Sequence record: OR670491
DNA: 64,000 nucleotides
Strand: one strand, 5' to 3'
Source of the DNA: Escherichia phage vB_EcoM_JNE01
This document shows, piece after piece, positions 42,928-63,069 of this stretch (the stretch's first letter is position 1; the number at the start of each line of letters is the position of its first letter). The position numbers were made by a program, and so were the translations under genes. The notes beneath the pieces were generated by a model. It saw only the letters and a list, made by a program, of their open reading frames with translations. It ran no database searches and was not told the origin of the DNA.

Positions 42928-42954
42928 GGGTTGACTTCGGTCAACCCTTTTTTT
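42928..42954 (+). terminator. PeSL-like terminator hairpin
   Basis: GGGTTGAC-TTCG-GTCAACCC followed by a T-run. Confidence 0.65.
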
Positions 42955-43439
42955 ATGGGACAAATTCGTAAATGGTGATACAATGATCTATGCACAACCA
43001 CAATGACAGTACTTGTACTGATAATCTTCCCTAATTCACTTGAAAACGTAAAGGATAGATGAGCTTTTCATTGTAGCGAACAGCAAAAGAAACCCGTTAG
43101 ATGTGGGCATAGTTTGAACCCCTCACGGCAATGCGGCTGTATAAAGAACCACGTTAGGATGGCTGGTGGTTCCTCGATAGACATATAAGGATAACACCTT
43201 ACGAATTATCTAAGGGAGAGTTATCAGATTTTGTACAATATAGTTGCGTCCAAAATTTGAGTACTCACATTAAGTATTTGATTGCATAGATACTTAATGA
43301 AGATACACTATGTTTAAAAGTGTAGACCGTCATATGAAACTGAAGTAGAGAGAAACAGGATGATCCGCTTTCGTGCTCTTTAAGAGTAATCTTCAATGCA
43401 ATAGCTCTGATACCATCAGCGTCAAATTCCCCTCTGTGT

Positions 43440-43447
43440 GGGGGGGG
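43440..43447. repeat. G8 homopolymer tract in a long non-coding region
   Basis: GTGTGGGGGGGGAAG read directly from sequence. Confidence 0.5.
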
Positions 43448-43558
43448 AAGAAAAATCCCTTTCTCAAATCCCGTCAATATTATAAAGTCCTTGACAGTTA
43501 TTATACATTCGCGTAAGATACGTAGTATCAGAAGCGAACAGACATCTCGAAGAGATGG

Positions 43559-43792
43559 ATGATTAACATTAAGGAACATCTAATGAATTCAACAATCTTC
43601 TTAGTAGCAGCTCTTTCAATGCAAAGCGGTGTACAAATCACTCCAATGAATTCCATGAATCAATGTATTTCTGTTCGTGATAGTACCTACGAACAGGTCA
43701 ATAAAAATATCTGGATGTCTATTGACAAAGAACAGATGTGGTGTTATAACAGTAATACAAAAGTTAAACTGTTTGTTGGTGAGAAAGAATAA
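43559..43792 (+). CDS. hypothetical protein
   Basis: 77-aa ORF. Confidence 0.45.
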   Translation: MINIKEHLMNSTIFLVAALSMQSGVQITPMNSMNQCISVRDSTYEQVNKNIWMSIDKEQMWCYNSNTKVKLFVGEKE

Positions 43793-43795
43793 TAG

Positions 43796-43824
43796 TTGAC
43801 ACGTAAGAAGTTCTAGAGTATAAT
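43796..43824 (+). promoter_or_regulatory. sigma70-type promoter
   Basis: TTGACA, 17-nt spacer, TATAAT. Confidence 0.55.
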
Positions 43825-43874
43825 TTCTACATTGAGTACTGAACTAAATCATTAATTAATCAAGAGGGTTTATC

Positions 43875-44060
43875 ATGCAAGTTATCGTTCTTATCGTTGG
43901 TATCGTACTGGGTGTTTATGGTCATTCCTGGATGCAGGAGAAGTTTCCTAATACTCGTCCAGACTTCTGTAGCACTACGGTGAGTTCTGAACTATCTAAA
44001 GATAGCAAAGATAGCATTGGTACTAAACTGGATAAAGTACTGAACGTAATTAACGAGTGA
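43875..44060 (+). CDS. small membrane protein
   Basis: 61 aa; hydrophobic N-terminus. Confidence 0.45.
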   Translation: MQVIVLIVGIVLGVYGHSWMQEKFPNTRPDFCSTTVSSELSKDSKDSIGTKLDKVLNVINE

Positions 44061-44071
44061 GGTAAGTTGTA

Positions 44072-44359
44072 ATGTTTATTCCTAATAATTCTAAAATTGG
44101 AACACAAGTACAACTTCTAGAAGATGTAAGTACTTGCAGTGGTACTTTCACTAAAGGTCACATCTTAACTATCACAGGTGAAACCGAGCGTGGTTATGAT
44201 TTGGAAGATGCTGATGGTAATCGTATCTTAGAAGCAGGGTTTAGTCGTTTTGTTGAAGTGGATAGTACTGACCAGAAAGAAACAGAAGGTCATTGTTTTG
44301 ATTACCAAGAAGTCAACTCAAAATGTATCTGTGGTGAAATTTATAGTAAATGGGATTGA
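44072..44359 (+). CDS. hypothetical protein
   Basis: 95-aa ORF. Confidence 0.5.
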   Translation: MFIPNNSKIGTQVQLLEDVSTCSGTFTKGHILTITGETERGYDLEDADGNRILEAGFSRFVEVDSTDQKETEGHCFDYQEVNSKCICGEIYSKWD

Positions 44360-44429
44360 CATAGTATAGAAATACTATATAATGTTTATATCAAATGAAA
44401 TTCACTTTAACCAACGATAGGAAAATATT

Positions 44430-44708
44430 ATGTCTTTAACCAAAGAAGAACGTGACCTTATTGAAAAAGCAATCTGGTTTTATGCAAATGAAAGCCAGTG
44501 CAGTGATGAAGAAGCACGTGAACTGTGCAACCACCTTAGACAGAAACAAGAACTGAAAGTGTATCGTATACGTGCTGTGGATGATGGGGATCGTATTGTT
44601 CTAGCGGAAACAAAAGAAGAAGCAGAACAAATCTTCACTGATAATAACGAAAATCCACATTACATGGAAGAAGTCTGTGAAGTGAAAAAAGGTACTTATA
44701 TCGATTGA
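44430..44708 (+). CDS. hypothetical protein
   Basis: 92 aa; TTGACA-17-TATAAT promoter about 40 nt upstream. Confidence 0.5.
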   Translation: MSLTKEERDLIEKAIWFYANESQCSDEEARELCNHLRQKQELKVYRIRAVDDGDRIVLAETKEEAEQIFTDNNENPHYMEEVCEVKKGTYID

Positions 44709-44826
44709 CAGTACTGAATAATAGCAGTATAATGTTTATATCAAAGGGAATGCAGTGAAAGGAAAGACAGCATAATCGTACTCGTCACTGCGTTTCCACC
44801 CTTTTAAATTAAATGAGGAATTAATT

Positions 44827-45135
44827 ATGTTTCAAACTAACACTCAAGGTTTTGTAATCATCGATCTGAATAAAAACAGCGGTCATTGGATGAAACCTAC
44901 TGACGCATGTATGCAGTTTGATTTCTTAGGTTATAAAATCAGTGTAAGCACTGGTGGTTCAGTACTGCGTGGTGGTTGTATCGTTGAACATCTCGTCACT
45001 GATCCTGAAGGCCGCGAATACGAAATCGCAGGTTCAGTACAAGATGCTATCATGTTCGTGTGTCAGCGTGAAATGAATGGCAGTAACAGCAACGCACTGA
45101 CAAACGCATTATCACAAGAAGTGGAGGTTCGTTAA
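44827..45135 (+). CDS. hypothetical protein
   Basis: 102-aa ORF. Confidence 0.5.
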   Translation: MFQTNTQGFVIIDLNKNSGHWMKPTDACMQFDFLGYKISVSTGGSVLRGGCIVEHLVTDPEGREYEIAGSVQDAIMFVCQREMNGSNSNALTNALSQEVEVR

Positions 45136-45380
45136 TGAAATATATTGTTTTAGTAGTAATGGCGTTTTTACTGAGTGCTTGTGATGCAAGTACGAAAGAC
45201 CGAACCAGTGAATTCCTTCTCCCTACTGAGTTAAAGGATGCTGGGTGTAAGATTTACCGTATGCGTCAGGAAGGTGATGGTGCAACTTTGTACACAGTTT
45301 ACTGCCCTAATGCTAATACCAGTACATCTTTCCGTACAGGAAAGACAACCGTACATGCATCTGTCATCAATGGTGAATAA
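45135..45380 (+). CDS. small lipoprotein
   Basis: Signal peptide with lipobox LLSAC; about 60-aa mature protein with two further Cys. Confidence 0.55.
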   Translation: MKYIVLVVMAFLLSACDASTKDRTSEFLLPTELKDAGCKIYRMRQEGDGATLYTVYCPNANTSTSFRTGKTTVHASVINGE

Positions 45381-45381
45381 C

Positions 45382-45747
45382 ATGGGATTGGACACAACTA
45401 AAGCCCAAGAACTACATAAGCGAGCAATGGATGAAGAGTTTTTAGCAAACATTCGCTATAAGATGGAGAAGCTATATCGTAGTGCTGAAATCTTAGAAGA
45501 CAAAAAACCTTCCATGACTACAAAATATTTCAATATCACTAACGACATTTGTTATAGTCCAGGTGAAATTTGGATTGAGTGGGAGTCTTGGACAGGGGAT
45601 ATTCTTCGTGTGCAAGGTTATTGTGTTCAATACGCTTTCGACGGTAATTCTAAATCACTGAAGGTACTATGTACTAATACGAATGATGTAGTGGATGTCA
45701 ACTTACATTGTATTAAATGGGTTGACTTTGGAGATGTAGATGAATAA
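45382..45747 (+). CDS. hypothetical protein
   Basis: Track ORF 45238-45747 trimmed to the first ATG after the previous stop. Confidence 0.4.
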   Translation: MGLDTTKAQELHKRAMDEEFLANIRYKMEKLYRSAEILEDKKPSMTTKYFNITNDICYSPGEIWIEWESWTGDILRVQGYCVQYAFDGNSKSLKVLCTNTNDVVDVNLHCIKWVDFGDVDE

Positions 45748-46000
45748 AATTAAATTCATTGTACTTATGGTTCTCATGTGTGTTTCACTCACTGGGTGTG
45801 ATGAAGACCTTTCAGCTAAAACATTAGCTCGCTGGAACTGTAAGATGACTGGTGAGAAGTTCAAAACAGTCGAAAGTGTTTGTGTTGGTGAAGGTAGAAG
45901 CCGCTGCGACAAAATGGTTGACCATGAAGTGGAATTGTTTGTATATGATTGTCCAACAAAGGGTCGAGTACTGAGTAAAAGTGAGTTAATTTATAATTGA
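45740..46000 (+). CDS. small lipoprotein
   Basis: Signal peptide with lipobox SLTGC; Cys-rich mature part. Confidence 0.55.
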   Translation: MNKIKFIVLMVLMCVSLTGCDEDLSAKTLARWNCKMTGEKFKTVESVCVGEGRSRCDKMVDHEVELFVYDCPTKGRVLSKSELIYN

Positions 46001-46056
46001 CAGTACACCACAAAAGGGATACAATGTATCCCTACTTTAATCGAAGAGGCTAACAA

Positions 46057-46266
46057 ATGACTACTAATGAAATGCTGAAAGCAATCTGGGATAAAGGTTA
46101 TGAACTGAAAGTAACCAGTACTGAGATTCGCGTATTCAAGACTGAGTACTGTGAATATCTGGATTTAGATACTTATAACAGTATTGTCGTTGAGCAACAC
46201 AAAGGCAATGTTACTGAAAGTATTGATTCAGTACTTAAACGTTCTTTAGCTATCGTTGGTGCTTAA
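46057..46266 (+). CDS. hypothetical protein
   Basis: 69-aa ORF. Confidence 0.45.
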   Translation: MTTNEMLKAIWDKGYELKVTSTEIRVFKTEYCEYLDLDTYNSIVVEQHKGNVTESIDSVLKRSLAIVGA

Positions 46267-46373
46267 AATGAATTCAGATTTACAGAAGATGATTGGATTT
46301 GGTATTTCTGTGTTTTTTGTTATGATTTCTTTTGCAATTTTCATCCCTAAACTATTTCATTAAGAGGTGTATT

Positions 46374-46568
46374 ATGATTTCTTTATATGTTGCTGTTATG
46401 CTCACTCATGGACAAATCGACCGCACCGTAGGTAAAGGTGTTTACACTACAGCAGATGAATGTTACACTGCTACTGCTTGGCCTCAAGATGAAGGTTCAA
46501 GTAATGAATTCAAATGTCTCAAAGTTAAAGGTGACTTTGTTAATCTTAAGGTTGTTGAGGCCAAATAA
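46374..46568 (+). CDS. small secreted/membrane protein
   Basis: Track ORF trimmed to the ATG after an AAGAGG RBS. Confidence 0.4.
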   Translation: MISLYVAVMLTHGQIDRTVGKGVYTTADECYTATAWPQDEGSSNEFKCLKVKGDFVNLKVVEAK

Positions 46569-47068
46569 TGGATATAAACGATTTACTATCGATAGTTTCA
46601 AGACCATGTAAACACTCTTTTGATAGTCATTCCTTTAATTACACAGACAAGATTCAAGTAGTCACCGAGGAATGTTATGGAGTAACAACTATACAGATTT
46701 TGGATAACTATAGTAATAGTTTATGTTATATATACTTGACAAACCGCAGTGATGAACTTAAAAAAACCGAAATTGTATTATTTGGCAAACAGTGTTCAGA
46801 CACGCGTGATATTGAGATACTTTATTATCCTGGAAAATCTACACGCGAAATTGTTTATGACATGTACGCACTAGATGATAACTTTGTTATTGATTACAGT
46901 ACTGAAGAAAAGGTTTTTCAACAAAGTTTAGTACACAACTTTGTGTTGGGTGATCCTGGTATTCCAAAGATTTTTAAAATTCTCGATTCAATTACAGTGG
47001 ATTTTGAATTTCATATGTGCATACGTTCTGAATACTTGGATGATTTTGTGGAGATTTTCGGTTTATGA
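46568..47068 (+). CDS. EE-x-FFQxS-motif family protein
   Basis: 166 aa; TEEKVFQQSLVHNF. Confidence 0.55.
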   Translation: MDINDLLSIVSRPCKHSFDSHSFNYTDKIQVVTEECYGVTTIQILDNYSNSLCYIYLTNRSDELKKTEIVLFGKQCSDTRDIEILYYPGKSTREIVYDMYALDDNFVIDYSTEEKVFQQSLVHNFVLGDPGIPKIFKILDSITVDFEFHMCIRSEYLDDFVEIFGL

Positions 47069-47286
47069 AACGATTTTACATCAACTATCTGTGTGTATCC
47101 GAATTCAATAACGTAAGAGGTCACACAATCGAAAAGCAATCTATGGATGTATATGTTCGTGCTGAAAGTCCTACACATGCATTGTTTAAACTTATCAGTG
47201 AAGTCACCAAGTACAATACTCCCAAAACCCAACGCTACATTGGTGCTTTGTATGATATCAATGAAGTTCCAGGGTGTGATATATAA
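47065..47286 (+). CDS. hypothetical protein
   Basis: 73-aa ORF. Confidence 0.45.
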   Translation: MKRFYINYLCVSEFNNVRGHTIEKQSMDVYVRAESPTHALFKLISEVTKYNTPKTQRYIGALYDINEVPGCDI

Positions 47287-47354
47287 AAAGTACTTGACTT
47301 GGATTAGAAATCTATATATAATATATACATATTAATCGAAATGGAAAATAAATC

Positions 47355-48029
47355 ATGTTGGCTAATCTTCAGTACTTTGTAACTTCTCCGTGGGATGAAC
47401 GTGGTGTTGAACTGAACCACAAAGAAACAAGTTTTGATGACATTGGTGTAGGTACATACATCTCTGCAAATTACGACCGTAACCATCCATTTTGGGAAAA
47501 GTTTAAAGATAATGAAAGTAATCGTGTTATGTCATTATTTCAACTTAAACAACCAGGGATTGTAGCTGGTTATAATGAAGAAGACATGATCAATGTATTC
47601 ACTAACTATAAGGTAGTTGAAGAATTCCCGTGGATTAATAAACACAACGGCAATGCTTATAGTTCAGATGATTATCGTGAAATGGTCACAAATGATGATG
47701 CAATTACGTTACCAAGTGGACGTCCAGTTCCATCATCAACAAATTGTATGTCTTCTTATGGTACGGCTGATAATCTTCAGCAAATCCTGAAGAAGTATAA
47801 GCGTGTTCTGGATTCAGAAGACGAGTTAGTACTGTGTATTCATCCTGTGTACAAATCCGAACAACCAGAAAGTGGTGGCTGGCGTTGGCATAAGAATGGT
47901 ACATATATTGGTAACAAAAGAAGTAAACGTGGATATGAATACCTGGCTGATGAACCTGATATTGAAGTAGTAATCGGCTTTAAATTTCTTAAAGTACAGA
48001 GGAAAGACAATGCTTTATCTAATTCTTAG
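47355..48029 (+). CDS. hypothetical protein
   Basis: 224-aa ORF. Confidence 0.55.
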   Translation: MLANLQYFVTSPWDERGVELNHKETSFDDIGVGTYISANYDRNHPFWEKFKDNESNRVMSLFQLKQPGIVAGYNEEDMINVFTNYKVVEEFPWINKHNGNAYSSDDYREMVTNDDAITLPSGRPVPSSTNCMSSYGTADNLQQILKKYKRVLDSEDELVLCIHPVYKSEQPESGGWRWHKNGTYIGNKRSKRGYEYLADEPDIEVVIGFKFLKVQRKDNALSNS

Positions 48030-48252
48030 TTTTGTGGTTGCAATCGTTTTTATGTTTTACCCAACCTTCGTAGCACTGGTTGTACAGAAAAGCTACCGTA
48101 CTATTGGCATCATCATGGTACTGAATATTGCACTTGCTCTAGTGTCTATGCTTGTAGTAGTATCATCGCTGGCGTGGGTTGATATCATTACATTTTGGTT
48201 ATTTGTGTTTTCTTATTTGATGATTGTTGAAGTCAAACCTATTGACTTATAA
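48010..48252 (+). CDS. small membrane protein
   Basis: 80 aa; two hydrophobic segments. Confidence 0.45.
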   Translation: MLYLILSFVVAIVFMFYPTFVALVVQKSYRTIGIIMVLNIALALVSMLVVVSSLAWVDIITFWLFVFSYLMIVEVKPIDL

Positions 48253-48300
48253 GTTACTTCTGATATAATAACTTTACATTAACTGATATGAGGTATTAAA

Positions 48301-48633
48301 ATGTTAGCACTTATTTCTTCTATTCCGGCTATGGTACTCGTTTGGATTATTGTTTTTTATATGTTTTCATCTGCTAAAACGAAAGAAAAGATGGAAGACT
48401 TGTTCTTGTTGGATACAACTGTAGTTGAAGTATTCTTCTGGGTAGTAGTCATCGGAACTGTTGTAATGATTCTGAACTTTGTATTACCACTTGGAATCGC
48501 TCACAACATTCTGTCCCTTGTTGAATATTTTATTGCAATCATTTGGTTCATGCAATGTCTGTTTGCTGGTAAGGTTGGAATCTGGTTTACGTTGGTGAAA
48601 GAAAAGATTAGTACGCTTACTAAAACTAAGTAA
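48301..48633 (+). CDS. membrane protein
   Basis: 110 aa; three hydrophobic segments. Confidence 0.5.
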   Translation: MLALISSIPAMVLVWIIVFYMFSSAKTKEKMEDLFLLDTTVVEVFFWVVVIGTVVMILNFVLPLGIAHNILSLVEYFIAIIWFMQCLFAGKVGIWFTLVKEKISTLTKTK

Positions 48634-48705
48634 TATTCTCAAAAATGTTAAATACTTCTGTACAAAGTAATGTTCAGAAGTATTTTTACTTTTATTGAGG
48701 GTATC

Positions 48706-49068
48706 ATGAAATATGTAATAATAACTATAACTTTTTTAATTGGATTGATTTCTAGTTCAGCCAATGCAGTAGTTGGTGAAGAACTAGATTGTATGGGGAA
48801 TGATGGGATATGGCATGTACTTACAAATGACCCACAAAATGGAACTAATATTGTAGTTGACGGTGATGTTTATAGGTTCAGAAACGAAAGTACAATAGGT
48901 AACAAAAAAGTCTCGACATATAAAAATGATGCTGATATAATAGCTAACGTAATCTTGATTGTAGATCCAAAGACAAGGGATGGAGATATCTATATTGTAA
49001 TATATAGAGATTCTTCGAATAAACGCGATGAGGATATAGATAAGCTTAATCTACATTGCGAATTTTAA
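48706..49068 (+). CDS. secreted protein, paralogue of 49453
   Basis: Track ORF trimmed to the ATG after a GAGGG RBS; signal peptide; Cys near both termini. Confidence 0.5.
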   Translation: MKYVIITITFLIGLISSSANAVVGEELDCMGNDGIWHVLTNDPQNGTNIVVDGDVYRFRNESTIGNKKVSTYKNDADIIANVILIVDPKTRDGDIYIVIYRDSSNKRDEDIDKLNLHCEF

Positions 49069-49079
49069 ACGAGGTTCTT

Positions 49080-49448: not shown

Positions 49449-49452
49449 GGAT

Positions 49453-49812: not shown

Positions 49813-49826
49813 TCGGGAGATAAAAT

Positions 49827-50018
49827 ATGTTGATTTATCAAGGTGATGGTATTCGTGTATTGCAGCATCCATTCCTTCAAGTCTTCGATGTACAGAAGTT
49901 TCAAGAAGGTGATGATCCAAGAACATATGGACGTAAACATGATTACTTCACAGTAAAGCAATGTACAAGTATTGAAGAAGTTCGTTCATTAGTGAAAGAA
50001 CTAGAAAATAATGGTTGA
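49827..50018 (+). CDS. hypothetical protein
   Basis: 63-aa ORF; followed by PeSL. Confidence 0.45.
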   Translation: MLIYQGDGIRVLQHPFLQVFDVQKFQEGDDPRTYGRKHDYFTVKQCTSIEEVRSLVKELENNG

Positions 50019-50073: not shown

Positions 50074-50520
50074 ATGCTGGTATATCGTTTTGAATTAGGC
50101 TTTAGTTATGTAGAAGAAAACTTATATCCAGTGAGATCAATTGGACCGTTCGCACGTTACTATTCACAATACAGTACTGACAACGGGTTTGACCGTTTGC
50201 GTTTAGGAACACCACACGAATTGCAACCTGAACCAGAAAAGGATGGCATTCATTGCATCAAGCACGGTTGGGCTTTTGGCTGTGCATCAATTAAAGACCT
50301 TATTCGTTTCTTCGCTAATGACTTAGGTCGTTTGCATCGTTCCGGCTTTCAGGTTTTTGTATATGAAGTTCCTGATAATCATGTTGATGTTGGTGGTCAC
50401 CAGGTTCAGTACTACGTAGGTAGTGCTAATTTAGTACGCATCATGGGTGTACGTGAAATGAAGCAAGAATACCGCCAGATGAAAGAGGTTGAAGATGCAA
50501 AAAACGCTGTACACGTTTAA
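50074..50520 (+). CDS. hypothetical protein
   Basis: 148-aa ORF. Confidence 0.5.
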   Translation: MLVYRFELGFSYVEENLYPVRSIGPFARYYSQYSTDNGFDRLRLGTPHELQPEPEKDGIHCIKHGWAFGCASIKDLIRFFANDLGRLHRSGFQVFVYEVPDNHVDVGGHQVQYYVGSANLVRIMGVREMKQEYRQMKEVEDAKNAVHV

Positions 50521-52010: not shown

Positions 52011-52043
52011 GGGTTGACCGAAGTCAACCCTTTGTTGTATAGT
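52011..52043 (+). promoter_or_regulatory. PeSL-like cassette (inverted loop CGAA)
   Basis: Hairpin GGGTTGAC-CGAA-GTCAACCC; TTGACC -35 and TATAGT -10. Confidence 0.5.
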
Positions 52044-53564: not shown

Positions 53565-53607
53565 ACACTAAGGTTGACTTCGGTCAGCATTTTTTATTGA
53601 TTTAGTA

Positions 53608-53636
53608 TTGACACTATTAAAAGAAATGAATATAAT
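53608..53636 (+). promoter_or_regulatory. sigma70-type promoter
   Basis: TTGACA, 17-nt spacer, TATAAT; just after a PeSL-like hairpin at 53572-53595. Confidence 0.5.
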
Positions 53637-53972: not shown

Positions 53973-54151
53973 GGAACAGGTATGTATTTATATATCGCAA
54001 TTTCAAGTATTGTCTTTGTTGTTATCGTTACTGGATGGTTTGGGTATCTAATGTTAAGTACAAAATAGGTTGACTTCGGTCAGCCTTTTCTTTATACTAT
54101 AAATATAGTCATAGAGAATAAACCAATATGAAATCTATGGAGAGAAATCAA

Positions 54152-55972
54152 ATGCCAGGTCAATTTACTGATAAAAATGGTGGTAATATGGCTGGTCACT
54201 CTGACCGTTGGAGTGATGCTAACCGCCGTAAGAATAGTTATCAAGCAGGACAAGGTTCACGTGGTTCACGTAATCAAGGGACAGGTTTAGCTGGTAAGGC
54301 AAACGCAGAAGCAGGTGAAGTTAAGAGTACTGAGAACATGACTGAGCTAGAAAAGCTACGTTATGTTAACTCATTAGGTCTTCTTAACGCAACACAGAAA
54401 CAACGCCTTGCTGATATGGAACGTGCTGAGAAAGAACAAGCAGTTCCTAAAGAAGAACCAAAACCAGAAGCTCCTAAAGCAGCTAACCCTGTTAAAGAGT
54501 TATCTGATAACTTAGGTAAGATCTTTGCTAACAAACCACAGTTGATTCAGGGTATTGTCAAAGCACTACAGGCAGTTCCTAAAGAAGAACTCAAAGGTAA
54601 AGCACAAGCTGTACTTGATGCAATGAAAGGTAATAAGAGCACTGAACCTACTGAAGTATTCAGTACTATCATGCGTGCACTGGAAGGTAAACAGAAATCC
54701 TTACCACAAAAGACCGATCAAAAACCAAGCAAACCTAGTGGAAGAATGTCTGAAGACGAATTCCGTGAAGTAAATGATTACTTAGGTGCTAAGTTTGTGA
54801 ACGATATTATCAATCAAGCTAAACAATATACAGACTTAGAGAAAGCACTGTACATTATTGATATGGCAATTGAAAATGTAGATGATGTAAATGATTCTCG
54901 TGCAGTTCGTATGTCAATGTCAAGTGCTGCTGATGACCTCACATCAATGGGATTAACGCTCAAGGATGAAGACGAAAATAATGATATTGAGTTTGATGAA
55001 CACTCACACGATGATGTTAATCTGGAAAGTATTCTTAAAACTTTTGATAGTATTGGCAAAGCAGACCGTGCTAATGCACAGCAAGTCAAGAATGTACTAG
55101 CTAAACTTGAAAACCGTTTAGAAGGTAAAGACGATAAGATTCAATTAGTACATGATGCTATCAAATCAGCATTAGATTCTTATGCACCTGGTGAGAAGTC
55201 TCGATTCATCACTGCTATGAATGCTGCATTCAATACTATGAAAAAGTATGAAGCTGAACATGGTGAGAAAGTATCAAAAGATGGTTACTTAGTTCGTGAT
55301 GATGAAGAAGGGGCAGTTGACCAGAAAGATGCTGAAACATCTCATGATGATTTACCTGATACTGTTGATATGGATGGTTACATTCATCGTCCTGAAATGG
55401 GAGAGTTTGGTTCTGACAAAGAAGGATTTGAACATGCAATGGCAGTGTACAAAGCTCTCGTGAACAATCCAGATTATGCCAACCGATTTGTAGATGAGTT
55501 TGATAGTGCATGGAACAACTACAAAGACAAAGGTTATGACTTCCCTGCTGAGGCAGCATTCTTTGAACTTGGTAAACTTTTAGCTAAACATGGAATTGAT
55601 GTAGGTTCTAAAGATGGTACTGATACTGATGGCATGGAAGCAGAATTGGCTAAAGATCGTGAAATGAACGACAACTCCATTCATGAACTCCAGAAGCTAA
55701 TGATGTGGATATCCGATATTGGTAAAAAAGCTGGTGCTGATAATAAGAGTATCAACAAAAACATTAGTTGGATTAAAAGTAATGTTGGTAAAAATGCTCG
55801 TAAACTACAAAAAGCATGGACTGATTTAGTAAATGGTGCTGATGATGTTGACATTGAATCACCAGAAGCATACGAATATGCATTAACTACTCTTGATAAT
55901 TCCTTTAAAGATTACGATAACGGTAACGTAACTCATTGGGAAAAGGATATCATGAACAAATACGGTAAATGA
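54152..55972 (+). CDS. large hypothetical protein (about 606 aa), charged and low-complexity
   Basis: Track ORF trimmed to the ATG after a GGAGAG RBS; optimal codons; flanked by PeSL cassettes; shares YVNSLGLL motif with ORF 53181. Confidence 0.55.
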   Translation: MPGQFTDKNGGNMAGHSDRWSDANRRKNSYQAGQGSRGSRNQGTGLAGKANAEAGEVKSTENMTELEKLRYVNSLGLLNATQKQRLADMERAEKEQAVPKEEPKPEAPKAANPVKELSDNLGKIFANKPQLIQGIVKALQAVPKEELKGKAQAVLDAMKGNKSTEPTEVFSTIMRALEGKQKSLPQKTDQKPSKPSGRMSEDEFREVNDYLGAKFVNDIINQAKQYTDLEKALYIIDMAIENVDDVNDSRAVRMSMSSAADDLTSMGLTLKDEDENNDIEFDEHSHDDVNLESILKTFDSIGKADRANAQQVKNVLAKLENRLEGKDDKIQLVHDAIKSALDSYAPGEKSRFITAMNAAFNTMKKYEAEHGEKVSKDGYLVRDDEEGAVDQKDAETSHDDLPDTVDMDGYIHRPEMGEFGSDKEGFEHAMAVYKALVNNPDYANRFVDEFDSAWNNYKDKGYDFPAEAAFFELGKLLAKHGIDVGSKDGTDTDGMEAELAKDREMNDNSIHELQKLMMWISDIGKKAGADNKSINKNISWIKSNVGKNARKLQKAWTDLVNGADDVDIESPEAYEYALTTLDNSFKDYDNGNVTHWEKDIMNKYGK

Positions 55973-55981: not shown

Positions 55982-56014
55982 GGGTTGACTTCGGTCAGCC
56001 CTTTTTGCTATAAT
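55982..56014 (+). promoter_or_regulatory. PeSL-like terminator-promoter cassette
   Basis: GGGTTGAC-TTCG-GTCAGCCC + TTTTT; TTGACT in stem; TGCTATAAT extended -10. Confidence 0.65.
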
Positions 56015-56042
56015 CATTTCATCAACTCAAGAGGAAACAAAA

Positions 56043-56450
56043 ATGAAAAAGACTATTTTAAGCGTAATCGGTGCAGTACTGTTCATGGTAACTTCAGTTG
56101 CTTCTGCTGCAACAGTAGAAGAGATCTTTAATAACAACCTACCTACTCAAGAAGAGATGGGTATTAAGAAGTGTGACCTTTCCCGTTACATCATTTTGGG
56201 ATCACAACTGGTTCCTGATGGTAAGGTTAAAAATCGTGTTAATCTGGTTGAAGATGGTAACACCTTCAGTTTTGAATATGGCGTAGCACCAACCTCCGGT
56301 TCTATGGATAACGTTGATGAAAACACTGGTTCCACCTGGAGTACTAACAAAGGTGATGTGTTCCATCGTATGCGTGAAGGTGGTAAACTGAAATATGTTT
56401 ACGAAAGCCCATTCATCAAACGCGTGTATATTATGACCAACTGCCATTGA
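56043..56450 (+). CDS. secreted protein
   Basis: Signal peptide (...TSVASAAT); Cys near both ends of the mature part. Confidence 0.55.
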   Translation: MKKTILSVIGAVLFMVTSVASAATVEEIFNNNLPTQEEMGIKKCDLSRYIILGSQLVPDGKVKNRVNLVEDGNTFSFEYGVAPTSGSMDNVDENTGSTWSTNKGDVFHRMREGGKLKYVYESPFIKRVYIMTNCH

Positions 56451-56501
56451 CAGATACATTTCAGTACTGTATAATACCTACATCAACCAGAGGATATGAC
56501 A

Positions 56502-56786: not shown

Positions 56787-56795
56787 GATAACAAT

Positions 56796-57128: not shown

Positions 57129-57463
57129 TGCAAACAGTAAACACATTAAGTTTTATCATTTGTACTGTGTCTGTATTTTATATGGTACTGTGTTATGTTT
57201 TGTGGTTTTTCAAATTTGAAAGCATTTTAGAACGTGTTTATAGGCTGGACTTAGAAGATGAGATTGGTATAACAGTACTCACTGTTCTAGGTTTTGTCTG
57301 TGGTGCGTCTATCCTGTTGGATATGTACATGAAACTACCCATTGATGCCCCACATCCTCCAGTAATCACCAGTTCAATTGTAATTGGTATTGTAGGTTTC
57401 CAGGGATTGATTAGTCTGTTTTCCTCAATAGCTACATATAGAGATAAGCTACCAAAGAGGTAA
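57128..57463 (+). CDS. small membrane protein, paralogue
   Basis: Same architecture; C-terminal ...RDKLPKR. Confidence 0.5.
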   Translation: MQTVNTLSFIICTVSVFYMVLCYVLWFFKFESILERVYRLDLEDEIGITVLTVLGFVCGASILLDMYMKLPIDAPHPPVITSSIVIGIVGFQGLISLFSSIATYRDKLPKR

Positions 57464-57465
57464 AA

Positions 57466-57819
57466 ATGTCGGATAAGTACTACTTTACGGGTAAGAAATG
57501 TGAACCATACGTTTTGGATTACAAGGAGCAGGAACAACCTAAACCGAAAAAGAAAGCGAAGAAGGAAGTAGTGAAGAAACAAAAACCACTGGTTAAAGGA
57601 TTGAAACTTAAACCTTTCCAAAAACTGGACTTTGACACTTACAGAAAGATTTATTTGGATTTGACGTGTAACATTAGCTTTGATGTTAATGCGATGAACA
57701 GGAAGTATAACCTGAAGGGTAGTTTCAATTTTTATTATGACTTAAAGAATGATGATCTTGAATCTTACCATGAGTGGTATAACGTTATGAATAACCACGT
57801 CGATGACAATAACCCATAG
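57466..57819 (+). CDS. hypothetical basic protein
   Basis: 117 aa; Lys-rich segment. Confidence 0.5.
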   Translation: MSDKYYFTGKKCEPYVLDYKEQEQPKPKKKAKKEVVKKQKPLVKGLKLKPFQKLDFDTYRKIYLDLTCNISFDVNAMNRKYNLKGSFNFYYDLKNDDLESYHEWYNVMNNHVDDNNP

Positions 57820-57827
57820 GTGAATAT

Positions 57828-58178
57828 ATGATTGAAATTATCGGAACGATCAGTTTTGTGTCATGTGTATTGTTCTGCACTTACATGATAATTGGACACA
57901 TTTTGTATTTCTTCAATTACATTACTGTGTTTAAAAAATTCTACTTCGAAAAGAGTGGATTTTTGTTTTACATTTGTGATTTTTTCACATGGGTGTCAAT
58001 GGGTGCAGTTATAATGGATATTATGTTTAGTGAAGATGTTTCTAAGGTAGGGTTCGGAATGACGCTTCTACCATTTGCACTATTCGTTACCCTTGTAGCT
58101 TTGTTCTTGATAGTGTTATCAAGTAATTTTATATCAGAGAAATTAAACAAGGCTAGAGAAAACTTCCCAATGCGATAA
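57828..58178 (+). CDS. small membrane protein, paralogue
   Basis: Same architecture as 56796 and 57128; C-terminal ...RENFPMR. Confidence 0.5.
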   Translation: MIEIIGTISFVSCVLFCTYMIIGHILYFFNYITVFKKFYFEKSGFLFYICDFFTWVSMGAVIMDIMFSEDVSKVGFGMTLLPFALFVTLVALFLIVLSSNFISEKLNKARENFPMR

Positions 58179-58189
58179 AGGAGTATACT

Positions 58190-58468
58190 ATGTTCGCACT
58201 ACGTAATAAAAAGACTCACCAAATCGTGGATTATGAATGGGTTTGCTATTACAATACTGGCAGCACTGATATGATTCTGTGCCATGATGGTGAAGAACCA
58301 TTTGTAACCAAACGTCGTGAAACACTCGAAGAGATCATCGAAGAATACAATACCAATGTAAATGCTGAAAATGGTCCTTATGGCGATGGCCTACGTGTAG
58401 AGTTACCAGATGCGTATGAAACTGGTAACATGGATTCTTACGAGATTGTAGAACTGGTGGTTAAGTAA
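58190..58468 (+). CDS. hypothetical protein
   Basis: 92-aa ORF. Confidence 0.5.
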   Translation: MFALRNKKTHQIVDYEWVCYYNTGSTDMILCHDGEEPFVTKRRETLEEIIEEYNTNVNAENGPYGDGLRVELPDAYETGNMDSYEIVELVVK

Positions 58469-58845
58469 TGCGTGTAATGTATAAAGTAACTGAGCTAAAC
58501 AAGCGTCTGCTTAAGATTTCTATGTTTGAGGATAAAGAATCTCTCTATAACTTTAAACGTGCTGTAGAGGCTGCTACGCATCTACAGAAGCTTAAGGATA
58601 AAGGATGTATCATTCTTGAAAACAATTCAGTACTGGAAGGTAACTTCAGTGTAGCCTTTGATGAAGCAGAAGATGGAACACTTTCTATGCCACGTTTGGG
58701 TACTGGTGACATGACAGTGTGGATTGGCTTTACTATGGGAAACAAGAAAGGAACTGTATACGTTGATGAAGAAGAGTTGAAAGATAGCTTCAAAAACTTA
58801 TCGTACATCGAACCACAATACTCTCATAAACTAAGTTTATTTTGA
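58468..58845 (+). CDS. hypothetical protein
   Basis: 125-aa ORF. Confidence 0.5.
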   Translation: MRVMYKVTELNKRLLKISMFEDKESLYNFKRAVEAATHLQKLKDKGCIILENNSVLEGNFSVAFDEAEDGTLSMPRLGTGDMTVWIGFTMGNKKGTVYVDEEELKDSFKNLSYIEPQYSHKLSLF

Positions 58846-58921
58846 GTTGACAATAAAGTTCAGTACTGTATAATGTTTATCAAGGGGATGAACTTCTCAT
58901 CCCCACAATCGAGGAATTGTC

Positions 58922-59476
58922 ATGATTACTTTTAAGAAAACTGCTAACCACATCCATGAGATCTACATTAACGGTCACAAAGCTGGCCTTCTTCGTTTAC
59001 TCGCCCATCATCCGAATATTACCGTATCTGATAATGAACCTAAAGATTGGCGTGTATTTTTCTTTGGAAAGTACAGTGATTTTCAAGTATCAAACCTGAA
59101 GAACATTCGTTCAGTATGCACGTTAACTGAAATTAAAGAAAAGTTAACCAAAGCATTGAAAACTAATCCAGATAGTGTTCTTCCACCTGATAACTTTGTA
59201 GAGAAAGGATATGCCTTAGCTCATTTCAAAGATGGTACTATTCAATCTATCAGTACTGAATATGAATATCAATGGACTGAGTACTTCACTTATGGATCGC
59301 GTAATACATTGATGGCTTCACGTAGTAAATTGGAAGAAGTACTGACTCGTATGAATGAACGCGAGCGTCAATTTTATGACAAACCAGAAATGTGGAGTTC
59401 AACTTACATTGACCGTATTGACTATGTTATTATGACTCCAATATTTGACACTGCTTACTATGATTCTTTGAAATAA
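58922..59476 (+). CDS. hypothetical protein
   Basis: 184 aa; TTGACA-N17-TATAAT promoter about 60 nt upstream. Confidence 0.55.
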   Translation: MITFKKTANHIHEIYINGHKAGLLRLLAHHPNITVSDNEPKDWRVFFFGKYSDFQVSNLKNIRSVCTLTEIKEKLTKALKTNPDSVLPPDNFVEKGYALAHFKDGTIQSISTEYEYQWTEYFTYGSRNTLMASRSKLEEVLTRMNERERQFYDKPEMWSSTYIDRIDYVIMTPIFDTAYYDSLK

Positions 59477-59487
59477 GGATAACTTAT

Positions 59488-59664
59488 ATGAAACTACGTA
59501 CTCGTAATCGACTGATGGATGCACTGTACCATGAACAGCTTTCACTGAATGAAGTGAAGCGTCAGTTAATGTACACATATCTGTTACCCGCTCGCATTGC
59601 AAAACAACGTGCTAAAGAATTGCTGAAAGAAGCAATCGAGTACTGGGAATCTGATTCGTACTAA
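59488..59664 (+). CDS. small hypothetical protein (58 aa)
   Basis: ATG after an AAGGA RBS; below track size cutoff. Confidence 0.35.
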   Translation: MKLRTRNRLMDALYHEQLSLNEVKRQLMYTYLLPARIAKQRAKELLKEAIEYWESDSY

Positions 59665-59692
59665 TTGTCACGTTAATTAAGTGAGGCGATAA

Positions 59693-59944
59693 ATGAAAAT
59701 TTTATTAGTTCTAATACTACTAATTGTTTTACCATTTACGTTAGTATCCCCTGAACTTGCATGGAATGTGTTTGTGTACTTACTATGTACTATTGTAGTA
59801 AATGGTATCTTGTTCTTAGTTCTATTCATAAATGGAATAGGACACGGTGGAGGATGGACCAGAACTGCTGATATTGTACATAAAACCACTATGTCTTTAT
59901 TTGTAGTGTGGAATTTATTCTGGACTTGGTTTGTGTTCTTCTAA
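59693..59944 (+). CDS. small membrane protein
   Basis: 83 aa; three hydrophobic segments. Confidence 0.5.
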   Translation: MKILLVLILLIVLPFTLVSPELAWNVFVYLLCTIVVNGILFLVLFINGIGHGGGWTRTADIVHKTTMSLFVVWNLFWTWFVFF

Positions 59945-59953
59945 TTAAAAAAT

Positions 59954-60325
59954 ATGAATATAGATTTGAAAGGTGCAACCCGAACTGTCATACTCATTGG
60001 GGAATATGCTATCAAGATTCCAACCTTTAAAAGTTGGAAGCTATTCTTAACAGGGATGATAGCTAACCTCAATGAACGTTCTTGGATGCAGTACTCCAAA
60101 CGTAGTGACAGTGGTATATGTCCTACTTTGTGGTCATCTATGACTGGTCTGATAACAGTACAGAAGCGATGTAAACCAGTACATCACCGAGGATTGTTTT
60201 GGGTGGAGTTGTGTGCGTTAGCATCGAAATCAGAGTTGAGTACTGACTTCTTTTATTCAGATGCGAAGCCAGAAAACTTTGGGTATCTGAATGGTAAGTT
60301 AGTTAAACTTGATTACGGAGATTAA
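59954..60325 (+). CDS. protein-kinase-like mini-ORF (N-lobe plus catalytic-loop motifs only)
   Basis: GEYAIKIP (beta3 Lys-like), YSDAKPENF (catalytic-loop-like), C-terminal DYGD (DFG-like); 123 aa. Confidence 0.45.
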   Translation: MNIDLKGATRTVILIGEYAIKIPTFKSWKLFLTGMIANLNERSWMQYSKRSDSGICPTLWSSMTGLITVQKRCKPVHHRGLFWVELCALASKSELSTDFFYSDAKPENFGYLNGKLVKLDYGD

Positions 60326-60326
60326 T

Positions 60327-60596
60327 ATGTACGCATTATATAATAAAGAAAAGAAACGATTCGCTAAGGTTGAAATTTTTATTGATACATTTGATATGTT
60401 AGAGTATTGTATCATCACTGATACTTATGAAGCATTGTATTACGTTCTTGATGACGTATCAGTACTGCAACGATTACTTGAGCGTTCAAAAAGTACATGC
60501 CAGGGTATCCATGATGGTTCATCTTATGAAACACCTGATTGTCCACACGGTCAACTCGATGGGTATGAGATTGTTAAGTTGGGAATTATTGAGTAA
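60327..60596 (+). CDS. hypothetical protein
   Basis: Track ORF trimmed to the ATG after a GGAG RBS, 2 nt after the kinase-like stop. Confidence 0.45.
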   Translation: MYALYNKEKKRFAKVEIFIDTFDMLEYCIITDTYEALYYVLDDVSVLQRLLERSKSTCQGIHDGSSYETPDCPHGQLDGYEIVKLGIIE

Positions 60597-60661
60597 AAGG
60601 TATTGACACAGTTCCCATTTAACAGTATTATGTATGTACACCAACTAATGAGGAATCTGAA

Positions 60662-61021
60662 ATGGCATCTTTAACTGAAATCACTGAACTTAATCCACTG
60701 GCAATTAGTACTGTTCAACGCACCAAGACGTTTTACTTCCGTCCAGCAGAAGGTTGGAAGCGTGGCGTGAATGGTGATTATCGTGAACTGGAAGATAATC
60801 TCGTGGGACGTGTTAATTCAGAACTTAATGTTTATGAAGGTGTTAAGGTTGTACGTTCACATTCTCGTTATTTTGAATACTACATTGAGTCTTCATCAGT
60901 GAATGAAAACAGTTCATTTTCTGTTGACAATACTGATACACTGCGTAATGCAGTATCTATTCTATGTAACATTGCAGAAGAGATGGGATTAACTATCGTA
61001 ACGATTGGTGAGTTAGCATGA
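60662..61021 (+). CDS. hypothetical protein
   Basis: 119-aa ORF. Confidence 0.5.
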   Translation: MASLTEITELNPLAISTVQRTKTFYFRPAEGWKRGVNGDYRELEDNLVGRVNSELNVYEGVKVVRSHSRYFEYYIESSSVNENSSFSVDNTDTLRNAVSILCNIAEEMGLTIVTIGELA

Positions 61022-61158
61022 TTAAAACTTTTATTCTTACAATGGTATTTGGTTCTTATGGTGCTGGTGTGCACCAGTAACTAAGAAATAAAAAAAGGTT
61101 GACAGTAGTCATCCCTTTCTATATAATTAATACATCTTAAGCGAACGAGGATTTACAA

Positions 61159-61575
61159 ATGAATGCAACTCTGAATGGTAAAAATATCAACGTAGCTACT
61201 ATTGCTGCAATTCTGCTAAACAATCGTGAAGTAACTATTGACTTACCACTTACAACTAAAACTGGTATTCTCATTACACGAAATGAATCACACTTCGTTG
61301 GTTACAAAAAGCAAGATGTTATTTCCGTTTGTTTTTATGAATCAGACGGCATCGACGACGAAGTAACTAGTACTGAATACTTCAATACCGACATGATTGA
61401 ATCAGCATCTAAAGCTGCACTTGAGCGTCATGCAAGTGAAGATCCAACTGAAGCATCCAACTTCAGTGTTTCATTTGAAAACACTTTCATCAAAATTGAT
61501 GAAAATGTTATTGATTTTGAAATGGCTGATATCAGTCCGATGGATCTCAATGGCCTTCCAACTGTTAAAGGATAA
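61159..61575 (+). CDS. hypothetical protein
   Basis: 138-aa ORF. Confidence 0.5.
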   Translation: MNATLNGKNINVATIAAILLNNREVTIDLPLTTKTGILITRNESHFVGYKKQDVISVCFYESDGIDDEVTSTEYFNTDMIESASKAALERHASEDPTEASNFSVSFENTFIKIDENVIDFEMADISPMDLNGLPTVKG

Positions 61576-61580
61576 TACAA

Positions 61581-62000
61581 ATGAAATGTCCAATCTGTGA
61601 AAAACAATTGAATGTTGGATCAATTCCTTTCCTTTGGATGGATCGCTACGGTGATAAATGCGTTGCCAGGACTGAATGCTGTGGTCATGCAGTAACAATG
61701 CGTAAGGTTTCAACCTATACAGCAGACCCGTATGTTGGTGAGCGAAGCGAAGATGATTGGGGTACAGAGTTTACTCCTTTGAAGTCTAAAATCCAAGCAC
61801 AAGTAAACGATGAACTTTATGATTCAGTACTGATGCACTTGAAGAACAACGAACTGAGAGAAGCACTTGATGTTATTCGTTCTATTAAGAACCCTTTAAC
61901 AGCAGCTTGGGTGACTCATCAAGTACTGGAATATTTGGATACACCTAGCCAAAAACAAACGCGTAACTGGCTCATTAACGCATTGTATAGTGGAGTATAA
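61581..62000 (+). CDS. hypothetical protein with CxxC...CC motif
   Basis: 139 aa; N-terminal CPICEK...TECCGH. Confidence 0.5.
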   Translation: MKCPICEKQLNVGSIPFLWMDRYGDKCVARTECCGHAVTMRKVSTYTADPYVGERSEDDWGTEFTPLKSKIQAQVNDELYDSVLMHLKNNELREALDVIRSIKNPLTAAWVTHQVLEYLDTPSQKQTRNWLINALYSGV

Positions 62001-62145
62001 GAGTAGTTGTAATCGAAGCTGTAATTTATATGTTGAGGTAGTTCAAATGAAAGTTATGTTTGTATACAACGAATTTGAAGAATGCAAAGGTTGTGGTTTG
62101 CCGAACTATCTTTGTTCCTGTCATGGTGAGTATTTCTGAAATAAA

Positions 62146-62178
62146 GGGTTGACTTCGGTCAGCCCTTTTTGCTATAAT
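62146..62178 (+). promoter_or_regulatory. PeSL-like terminator-promoter cassette upstream of denV
   Basis: GGGTTGAC-TTCG-GTCAGCCC + TTTTT; TTGACT -35; TGCTATAAT. Confidence 0.65.
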
Positions 62179-62206
62179 ACTTTCATCAAGACGAGAGGAT
62201 GAAAAC

Positions 62207-62722
62207 ATGACACGCATTAACTTAGTACACGTTAAAGAACTTGCTGACCAACATCTGATGGCTGAATACCGTGAACTCCCACGCGTGTTTGGTGCTGTAC
62301 AAAAACATGTTCAAGCACGTAAACGTGTCCGTGATTTCAAAATTAACAGTACTTACCTGTTAGGTTCAGGTCATGTAACATTCTTCTACGACAAGTTACT
62401 TTACTTACAGAAGCGACATATTGATATTGTCAACGAATGTTTGCGTCGTGGTATGAAGATTCAAAACACTGAAGTAAACGATATCAGTGGGTTCCCTGCT
62501 GAGTTTTGTAATGATTACGTACCATCGGAGTCAGAGATTAAAACATCGCGTGAGCGTTTGATTGAGAAGCTCCAGATGAAGCCTAAGTGGTATAAATTTA
62601 CTGATGTTGAATGTCCACAGTACGTTAAAGATATGCAGAACGTAAGTAGTAAGATCGAATCTAGTACTGATATGTTCGACGAAATTGAAGAACAAATCAA
62701 AGATGAAATGAATAATTATTAA
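62207..62722 (+). CDS. denV: endonuclease V (pyrimidine-dimer DNA glycosylase/AP lyase), T4 DenV homologue
   Basis: [30 protein letters not shown]...KRVRDFKI...[10 protein letters not shown] matches T4 endonuclease V nearly residue for residue over the N-terminal 70 aa. Confidence 0.9.
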
Positions 62723-62760
62723 AGGAAAGGATTGACTTCGGTCACACAAAGGAACATAAC

Positions 62761-62955
62761 ATGTTATTACTATATTCAAAGCGTTTCTGGATTTCTTTCA
62801 TTGTACTTTCGCTAATCGGCTTCGGTGTGAGTATAATCTTTTCGTGGGATGAATTGGGTACATGGTATTATGAAGTTCCGTGGTACATGAAGATAGCTCC
62901 TTGTTACGCGGCATTGTTCGTGTCCTTCCTTATTGTTGTCTTCAGTGAGGATTAG
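62761..62955 (+). CDS. small membrane protein
   Basis: 64 aa; two hydrophobic segments. Confidence 0.45.
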   Translation: MLLLYSKRFWISFIVLSLIGFGVSIIFSWDELGTWYYEVPWYMKIAPCYAALFVSFLIVVFSED

Positions 62956-63037
62956 TTGATGTAGTGGCTGATAAATCACATGAATTACTAAGGGTACGTT
63001 GGCCTCATCTTAATGAGAAGAAATAAACATTTTAAAG

Positions 63038-63069
63038 GGTTGACTTCTGTCAGCCCTTTTTGCTATAAT
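63038..63069 (+). promoter_or_regulatory. PeSL-like terminator-promoter cassette
   Basis: GGGTTGAC-TTCT-GTCAGCCC + TTTTT; TGCTATAAT. Confidence 0.6.

Follow-up and report, generated by a model that had tools for sequence, protein, structure and literature searches.

Promoter-early stem-loops (PeSLs) are composite elements that were first defined in phages RB49/phi1 and later found in T4/PST and KVP40/nt-1 (PMC2839356, PMC4122927). In RB49/phi1, a PeSL comprises a strong sigma70-like early promoter with AT-rich upstream DNA, a terminator stem-loop overlapping the promoter, and a Shine-Dalgarno (SD) sequence with an ATG at the 3′ end. These elements are clustered in hyperplastic regions, where they mediate the insertion, deletion, and replacement of ORFans, and their promoter activity, terminator activity, and mini-circles were shown by experiment (PMC2839356). 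Meanwhile, the PeSLs of KVP40/nt-1 have a stem-loop of the form A3-4G3-loop-C3T3-4 and a promoter of the form TTGYVH-N17-TAWWAT, followed by SD and ATG, and are also repeated in hyperplastic regions, where they adjoin insertions and deletions (indels) of ORFans (PMC4122927). Here, we describe a family of repeated cassettes from a 64,000-nucleotide stretch (hereafter, the window) of Escherichia phage vB_EcoM_JNE01 (record OR670491). We consider these to be, most probably, PeSL-type regulatory cassettes that pack an intrinsic terminator and a sigma70-type promoter into ~35 bp.

A preliminary description of the window had proposed a likeness to PeSLs, and the architecture of the cassettes does match that of the published elements, being nearest to the KVP40/nt-1 type. 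Both families display the A3-4 G3-loop-C3 T3-4 layout, a -35 box after GGG, a spacer of ~17 bp, a TAWWAT -10 ahead of SD and ATG, and repeated copies beside ORFan indels. In KVP40 DNA (e.g., AAAAGGGTTGCTTCGGCAACCCTTTTTGCGTATTAT and AAAAGGGTTGACTGCGGTCAGCCCTTTCGCGTATTAT), the -35 starts right after GGG, within the 5′ arm, and AAAAGGGTTGACTGCGGTCAGCCCTTTCGCGTATTAT is 83% identical over 52 nt to one of the window copies (C6, see below). KVP40 also has a GGGTTGC-TTCG-GCAACCC variant. Unlike the KVP40/nt-1 elements, those of the window reside in an Asteriusvirus rather than in a member of the Straboviridae, have a TTGAC/GTCAG stem instead of the majority TTGYVH form, display a -10 box nearer to consensus and with a TGn extension, and belong to one sequence family that supplies every terminator of a 20-kb sector. 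With the PeSLs of RB49/phi1, the window cassettes share the combination of a sigma70-like promoter, AT-rich upstream DNA, an overlapping stem-loop, and ORFan turnover, seen here from sequence alone. The RB49 stem-loop differs in its polyG/polyC stem, which in most cases occupies the spacer between the two boxes or covers the -10 and does not include the -35.

The same hairpins carry terminator annotations, made independently by other groups with ARNold, in the RaK2-like jumbo phages G17, UE-S1, and CBB. Identical hairpins stand at orthologous sites in the records of G17, UE-S1, and GAP32 and in Table S8 of the CBB paper, with ARNold energies of -13.5 to -17 kcal/mol. These annotations treat the hairpins as terminators only, to which the window cassettes add a putative promoter half and a role in recombination. 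Since they are listed in this way, those annotations probably give an incomplete account of promoters and transcription units. Within the supplementary files of the CBB paper, the motif occurs in the terminator table only, and we found no description of a composite cassette for Asteriusvirus or RaK2-like phages in the openly searchable literature.

By sequence, the window copies display -35 and -10 boxes at 16-18 bp, a stem-loop overlapping them, and an AT-rich tract with SD and ATG within a gap of ~100 bp. They are clustered in a hyperplastic region and stand at indel and replacement junctions, where hybrid copies also occur. Residence in a T4-type phage (Straboviridae), which is part of the historical context of PeSLs and not a mechanistic feature, is not shared by the window. 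The cassettes can thus be regarded as a PeSL-type family in a new phage lineage, that is, a new example of a design known from T4-like phages. With it, the range of PeSL-type composite cassettes widens from T4-like phages to include RaK2/121Q-like jumbo phages.

The cassette cluster of the window

The window derives from a 121Q/PBECO4-like jumbo coliphage of the genus Asteriusvirus (RaK2/121Q-like), with a genome of ~350 kb. Its closest match is Escherichia phage Turkey5 (96-98% identity), and all of its best matches are Asteriusvirus or other RaK2-like jumbo phages of ~350 kb. The T4-type affinity that had been deduced from the cassettes is rejected on the basis of these matches, and the cassette itself also occurs in Vequintavirinae and Herelleviridae.

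The cluster starts directly 3′ of a gene encoding a phage sigma-70-family factor (41958-42920, + strand) with Sigma70_r2 and r3 Pfam domains, a layout common to Turkey5 and CBB. In Turkey5, it begins 7-10 nt past this gene, and 11 of the 12 cassette copies of the complete genome lie within 304,877-325,091, all on the + strand. This sector (304.9-325.1 kb) is the richest in indels in comparisons with relatives. All eight convincing + strand hairpin/T-run sites at 42.9-63.1 kb of the window belong to the cassette family, while the terminators at 1-42 kb all have stems unrelated to that of the cassette. A standard terminator scan missed three of the copies (C6, C7, and C9), probably because the T-run was absorbed by pairing between A-tract and T-tract, and a custom scan recovered them. 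The whole window is a promoter-dense, single-strand region: near-consensus sigma70 sites (at least 11 of the 12 positions of TTGACA-N16-18-TATAAT) number 43 on the + strand and 1 on the - strand, and 114 against 9 (main strand against the other) in the reassembled Turkey5 genome.

A search for the hairpin core GGGTTGACTTCGGTCARCCC with up to three mismatches returned eight sites in the window, at 42928, 50012, 52011, 53571, 54067, 55982, 62146, and 63037. No match occurred in any of 100 dinucleotide-preserving shuffles, which sets the chance expectation at 0. The preliminary description had counted at least eight occurrences of a 33-bp motif, at positions that proved correct within 0-2 nt. The eight hairpin cores stand, and the complete TTTTTGC-TATAAT tail is present in only three of them (55982, 62146, and 63037). 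The repeat has the form GGGTTGAC-TTCG-GTCA(A/G)CCC, and all copies read on the + strand, including the one at 52011 that had been taken for an inverted copy, in which only the tetraloop is flipped (CGAA). The hairpin comprises an 8-bp stem and a cUUCGg loop, with a T-run directly after it. The cUUCGg tetraloop is an extra-stable RNA tetraloop. The folding energies of the 20-mers as sense RNA are -10.6 to -12.9 kcal/mol, and that of a damaged copy (C4) is -7.5 kcal/mol. The sites have the anatomy of intrinsic terminators, with a hairpin and U-tract that lie, on the transcribed strand, where a gene ends, which agrees with the terminator function first proposed for them.

The three complete copies are C6 (55978-56014), C7 (62143-62178), and C9 (63034-63069). 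C6 consists of an A-tract, GGGTTGAC-TTCG-GTCAGCCC, T5, and TGC-TATAAT, with its -35 at 55985-55990, its -10 at 56009-56014, and the next ATG at 56043. C7 lies upstream of denV (62207-62722), and C9, in which the loop is TTCT, lies upstream of an open reading frame (ORF) at 63096-63329. In complete copies, the stem TTGACT and TATAAT are separated by 18 bp and the TGC before TATAAT supplies a TGn extended -10, as had been suggested. An A-tract precedes GGG, and AGAGGA and ATG follow 25-35 nt past the -10. Gaps between stop and start codons measure 55-70 nt at C2, C6, and C7.

Weaker -10 boxes are found in three copies. The hairpin of C2 (50012-50043) overlaps the stop of the ORF at 49827-50018 and continues with T6 and TTGACT-17-TATACT, and the next gene starts at 50074. 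C3 (52011-52043) reads GGGTTGAC-CGAA-GTCAACCC-TTTGTTG-TATAGT, with TTGACC-18-TATAGT. C5 (54067-54098) reads AGGTTGAC-TTCG-GTCAGCCT, with an A-U pair in place of the outer G-C pair, a TTTCTT tail, and TTGACT-17-TATACT. It stands upstream of a 614-amino-acid (aa) gene at 54128-55972 (+), annotated as 'virion structural protein' (PHROG 20398), which thus lies in an early-type region between C5 and C6. An internal hypervariable segment of this gene (54688-55021) differs in every relative compared.

The remaining copies lack a usable promoter half. C1 (42925-42954), terminator-only, reads AAA-GGGTTGAC-TTCG-GTCAACCC-T7 and stands 7 nt past the sigma factor gene. Its hairpin has an energy of -12.7 kcal/mol, and no -10 box was found at a spacing of 16-18 bp. 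A terminator-only copy after the sigma factor gene is kept in four genomes (the window, Turkey5, UE-S1, and EcMJ). C4 (53571-53636) has a weakened hairpin, AGGTTGAC-TTCG-GTCAGCAT, with a mismatched base in the stem and a T-run after it, and a separate TTGACA-17-TATAAT promoter lies 37 nt downstream (53608-53636). C8r (62729-62744), which corresponds to the partial copy reported near 62731, is a truncated remnant, GGATTGACTTCGGTCA, composed of the 5′ arm, loop, and GTCA only. It has neither the 3′ arm nor the T-run and -10, and folds at -3.2 kcal/mol. Promoter scores follow the same division: C6, C7, and C9 reach 11/12 with TGn, C2, C3, and C5 reach 10/12, and C1, C4, and C8r fail. The layout of a composite terminator-promoter unit is therefore complete only in C6, C7, and C9, the other copies being terminator-only, degraded, or equipped with a weaker -10.

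The putative promoter half

IMG/VR contains 36 occurrences of the exact 24-mer GGGTTGACTTCGGTCAGCCCTTTT. A TAnnnT box is found 17-18 bp past the stem TTGACT in 33 of the 34 unique viral contexts of this 24-mer, compared with a background of 7.9%. Bacterial genomes (596 Gb) provided a natural control: the 24-mer is present in only seven contigs, from Vibrio, Bacteroidetes, and Clostridia metagenome-assembled genomes, and a correctly spaced -10 follows it in one of these seven. Its near absence from bacterial genomes shows that the 24-mer is not a host-derived repeat. The sequence past the T-run is not arbitrary, which suggests more than a terminator alone, and this tight coupling to a -10 box across phages favors the original suggestion that the stem-embedded -35 is part of a promoter.

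The simplest alternative is that the cassettes are plain intrinsic terminators, in which neither the stem TTGAC nor the TA-rich box past the T-run is more than incidental, and the genes downstream depend on read-through or on other promoters. This would agree with the public records and the CBB paper, which give the hairpins as terminators only, with the lack of a usable -10 at C1 and C4, with the six bacterial contigs out of seven in which the 24-mer has no correctly spaced -10, and with the many hairpin-less consensus promoters near the cassettes. The coupling described above argues against it. In addition, TTGAC-bearing stems are found in 115 unique contexts, a constancy that a terminator would not need, and a short conserved leader, TTTCATCAA...AGAGGA...ATG, follows C6, C7, and C9, which places SD and ATG at a fixed distance. 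Based on this, we consider the terminator-only explanation improbable.

The cassette promoters also have a geometry of their own when compared with 112 stand-alone promoters of Turkey5. The sixth base of the -35, which is also the first base of the loop, is T in 84% of cassette promoters, while it is A in 93% of the stand-alone ones. A spacer of 18 bp occurs in 58% of cassette promoters against 9%, and a TGn extended -10 in 74% against 35%. The TGn enrichment, which would not be expected of plain terminators, is likely a compensation for the forced TTGACT and 18-bp geometry.

We infer that host sigma70 reads the cassette promoters early in infection, given their near-consensus boxes and the precedent of PA5oct. 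In this related jumbo phage, TTGAC/TATAATA motifs occur at start sites mapped by RNA-seq, and host RNA polymerase is thought to carry out the transcription. Alternatively, the promoter half might be read by the phage sigma70-family factor encoded at 41958-42920, making the cluster a delayed-early or middle regulon. The position of the cluster in Turkey5 and CBB, starting right after the sigma factor gene and staying within ~20 kb, is compatible with this possibility, as is the enrichment of TGn in the cassettes. Pfam detects only regions 2 and 3 in this factor, which would fit a reliance on the extended -10. Nevertheless, the boxes are near-consensus for host sigma70, and the cassette is also found in unrelated phages (KVP40-like phages, Aeromonas phage 65, CR8, and Brochothrix phage A9). 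We assign only a slim chance to the use of the phage factor instead of host sigma70.

Other promoters of the window display features that touch on this design. Near-consensus promoters with unrelated hairpins enclosing the -10, an RB49-like layout in which the -10 lies in the loop, occur at 1411-1470, 15749-15790, 33723-33770, and 45997-46035 (+), the first of them with a 14-bp stem followed by CTTTTTT. At 28093-28135 (+), a hairpin at 28106 encloses the -35. The presence of RB49-type layouts elsewhere in the window indicates that the overlap of promoter and hairpin is wider than the cassette family reported here. Five promoters (56447-56475, 58847-58874, 25126-25154, 28106-28134, and 44705-44733, all +) share a palindromic spacer word, (T)TCAGTACTG, right before the -10, which could be a regulator site or mere shared ancestry.

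Evidence for selection on the RNA hairpin

The 3′ arm of the hairpin has an A/G position that carries G in 78 of the 90 oriented copies (~87%), which are the unique copies from all phage loci fetched. This G can pair with U in the sense RNA but leaves C opposite A in the antisense RNA (-12.7 versus -7.5 kcal/mol). Because of the G-U wobble, only the sense RNA forms a stable hairpin. We regard this asymmetry of the 3′ arm as the strongest internal evidence for selection acting on the RNA. Further changes leave the pairing intact: 14 of the 90 copies have A-T where the others have the outermost G-C pair, and the loops differ (TTCG, TACG, TTAG, TAAG, TGCG, TTCT, and the flipped CGAA). The case for structure is built on the asymmetric wobble, the changes of the outer pair, and the variation of the loops, since covariation of the inner stem is uninformative where the -35 fixes TTGAC. 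No Rfam family was found over the cassettes or over the gap past C1.

The asymmetry also bears on the possibility that the 20-bp dyad is a DNA operator, bound over the -35 by a dimeric regulator (a phage early repressor or a host protein of the FNR/CRP type) that silences the promoters. TTGAC-N4-GTCAA resembles an FNR box, the stem sequence is extremely conserved, and the dyad overlaps the -35. The sole paper found to contain the core string gives TTGACttcgGTCAA as a putative FnrL-type site in Rhodobacter, from sequence analysis. Against this, the G variant (GTCAG) breaks the DNA dyad and keeps the RNA pairing, the loop is the RNA-stabilizing cUUCGg, and the T-run always comes next. The center of the dyad, counted from the sequence, lies at about -28 to -29, and the usual positions of activators differ from this. 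The cassette is also present in a phage of a Gram-positive host, and the -35 together with the pairing already explains the conservation of the stem. An operator of the FNR type was rejected on the ground that the dyad is broken in most copies with the RNA pairing kept, and we hold any operator function of the dyad to be very improbable.

Gene turnover at the cassettes

The region at 42-63 kb had been described as plastic, and comparison with five relatives (Turkey5, G17, 121Q, UE-S1, and EcMJ) revealed that ORFs have been gained, lost, and replaced at the cassettes. Between 42 and 64 kb, the window and Turkey5 (98% identical) display three whole-ORF differences, all of them at promoter elements. 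The first involves two hairpin-less consensus promoters (44356-44383 and 44705-44733, +; whole segment 44356-44745) that share an 18-bp direct repeat, TATAATGTTTATATCAAA, and flank the ORF at 44430-44708. The direct repeats of these promoters lie at 44395/44728, and Turkey5 has here one hybrid promoter and no ORF. In the second, the ORF past C4 and its promoter at 53608 is replaced, starting 4 nt past the -10. The third is a 1.5-kb module (60597-62143, +) with promoters at 60603 and 61099 and three to four small ORFs, which is absent from all five relatives and has AAAGGnTTGAC at either border (as AAAGGTATTGAC at the left end and as AAAGGGTTGAC, part of C7, at the right end).

Homology to G17, 121Q, UE-S1, and EcMJ ends at C4, C5, C6, C7, and C9, at distances of 0-11 nt. 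At C4, it stops at 53588-53595 in all four and resumes at 54048-54059, near C5. At C6, the homology to G17 and UE-S1 stops at 56006-56014, within the cassette, and G17, 121Q, and EcMJ carry an extra 450-630 bp directly left of C9. The slot between C4 and C5 holds 0, 1, or 3 different ORFs across the six genomes. The window has a 101-aa ORF there, Turkey5 a tiny ORF of another kind, G17 and 121Q a 37-aa ORF, EcMJ three ORFs, and UE-S1 none. The last genome has a single hybrid cassette that joins the left flank of C4 to the right flank of C5. The swapping of ORFs between cassettes, which had been put forward as a comparative check, is thus visible in this slot. Most of the inserted ORFs belong to no Pfam or PHROG family.

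This pattern of breakpoints is the one by which PeSLs were defined, and the near-identical tandem copies within 20 kb would provide portable homology for the insertion, deletion, and replacement of ORFs by recombination. Such a process offers a concrete route for the turnover of accessory 'ORFan' genes in 350-kb phages. The junctions at hairpin-less promoters indicate that the hairpin itself is not needed for shuffling, and the substrate of recombination appears to be the shared promoter sequence rather than the hairpin. It is least probable of all that the cassettes are instead parts of a self-mobile element or targets of homing endonucleases, and not primarily transcription signals. HNH/homing endonuclease genes do adjoin cassettes in relatives (EcMJ_557 sits in the slot left of C7) and the cassette matches in JP4 and SHEFM2K overlap 'homing endonuclease' genes, but there is no element-encoded recombinase, no terminal inverted repeat besides the hairpin, and no target-site duplication, most cassette-flanked ORFs are not nucleases, and the junctions show simple homology between cassettes.

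Proposed mechanism and wider occurrence

We propose that RNA made from the upstream gene would fold as GGGUUGAC-UUCG-GUCAGCCC-U5, in which the 8-bp hairpin, the cUUCGg loop, and the U-tract would act as a terminator or attenuator closing the preceding early gene. At the DNA level, the 5′ arm would serve as the -35 (TTGACT) and the 3′ arm with the T-run as the 17-18 bp spacer, followed by the TGn-TATAAT extended -10. Host RNA polymerase with sigma70 would then start the next transcript ~7 nt downstream, before the conserved short leader, AGAGGA, and ATG. With a terminator and a promoter in each cassette, every small early gene could be insulated and separately driven within a gap of 55-70 nt. 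The cassettes would therefore be an example of overlapping codes in one sequence, in which a suboptimal -35 and spacer are offset by the extended -10 and a wobble pair gives a strand-specific hairpin. A natural terminator-promoter element of ~35 bp could also serve as a compact insulator part in synthetic constructs.

Several points weigh against this interpretation. A strong -10 is present in only three of the nine window copies, and C1, C4, and C8r have none. At C3, the ATG (gene start according to the Turkey5 annotation) lies only 9 nt past the -10, which would put the SD upstream of the predicted start and makes its use as a promoter doubtful. Both the 18-bp spacer and TTGACT are suboptimal for sigma70, and the phage sigma factor encoded just upstream could be the real user of these promoters. 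Many of the copies in the count that couples hairpin and -10 are orthologues or paralogues, so that the events are not independent. With respect to recombination, selection biases surviving indels to intergenic DNA anyway, and several breakpoints fall at promoters devoid of a hairpin (44356/44705 and 60603).

The cassette, often as an identical 20-mer, is found in all RaK2-like jumbo phages, in Aeromonas phage 65 (Straboviridae), in Cronobacter phage CR8 (Vequintavirinae), and in Brochothrix phage A9 (Herelleviridae), which infects a Gram-positive host. Its presence in unrelated lineages means that it carries no taxonomic signal and is not a lineage marker. The simplest explanation of this exact recurrence is a set of strong constraints that act jointly, with horizontal spread as the alternative. 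Sigma would require TTGAC, pairing its complement, stability cUUCGg, termination GGG/CCC and the U-tract, and spacing the 17-18 bp.

A more far-reaching interpretation, which we judge unlikely, goes beyond the PeSL-type cassette proposed above. It holds that AAAGGGTTGAC-TTCG-GTCAGCCC-T4-5-(TGn)-TAnnnT might be a near-optimal minimal 'stop-and-restart' element that arose by convergence or spread horizontally among large virulent phages of at least four unrelated lineages (RaK2-like jumbo phages, Straboviridae, Vequintavirinae, and Herelleviridae of a Gram-positive host). Selection would in that case favor the G-U wobble, which preserves the hairpin in the RNA but abolishes both the antisense -35 and the cruciform in the DNA, and termination inside the next promoter would pass the released RNA polymerase straight to that promoter. 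Post-termination re-initiation by RNA polymerase was described by Harden et al. (10.1101/663534).

Other features of the window

Two further segments differ from Turkey5. A 1,026-bp in-frame insertion (11800-12825, +) interrupts a C5-cytosine DNA methyltransferase exactly at its catalytic GFPC|Q motif and is absent from Turkey5. CFPEGT opens the insertion and VVHN|C closes it, and Pfam detects Hint and LAGLIDADG domains in it; these termini and domains identify it as an intein with a homing endonuclease. A cluster of nine tRNA genes spans 22282-29812 (+), and the segment at 24600-28226 is rearranged and larger than its Turkey5 counterpart (3.6 kb versus 1.4 kb). Two identical promoters, TTGACTaaatagttcagtactgaTATAAT, stand at 25126 and 28106.

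Directly past C1, a gene-free gap of ~610 bp (42955-43558) contains a TGA-TACAAT extended -10 at 42976-42984 and a conserved non-coding element of ~200 nt at 43040-43235 (+). The latter is repeated two to five times per genome in 60 RaK2-like phage records, where the copies lie nearly always in DNA without annotation, and Turkey5 has three paralogous copies at ~54037, 192113, and 304965. It had no match in Rfam 15 even at E ≤ 1. Eight diverse copies support a six-helix structure, in which 98.6% of cells are paired and 14 pairs are compensatory. Shuffles gave 7.4 ± 1.5 such pairs, with none of the 500 attaining 14, and slid controls gave 1-4. The element looks like an undescribed structured RNA and is a candidate for a new family.

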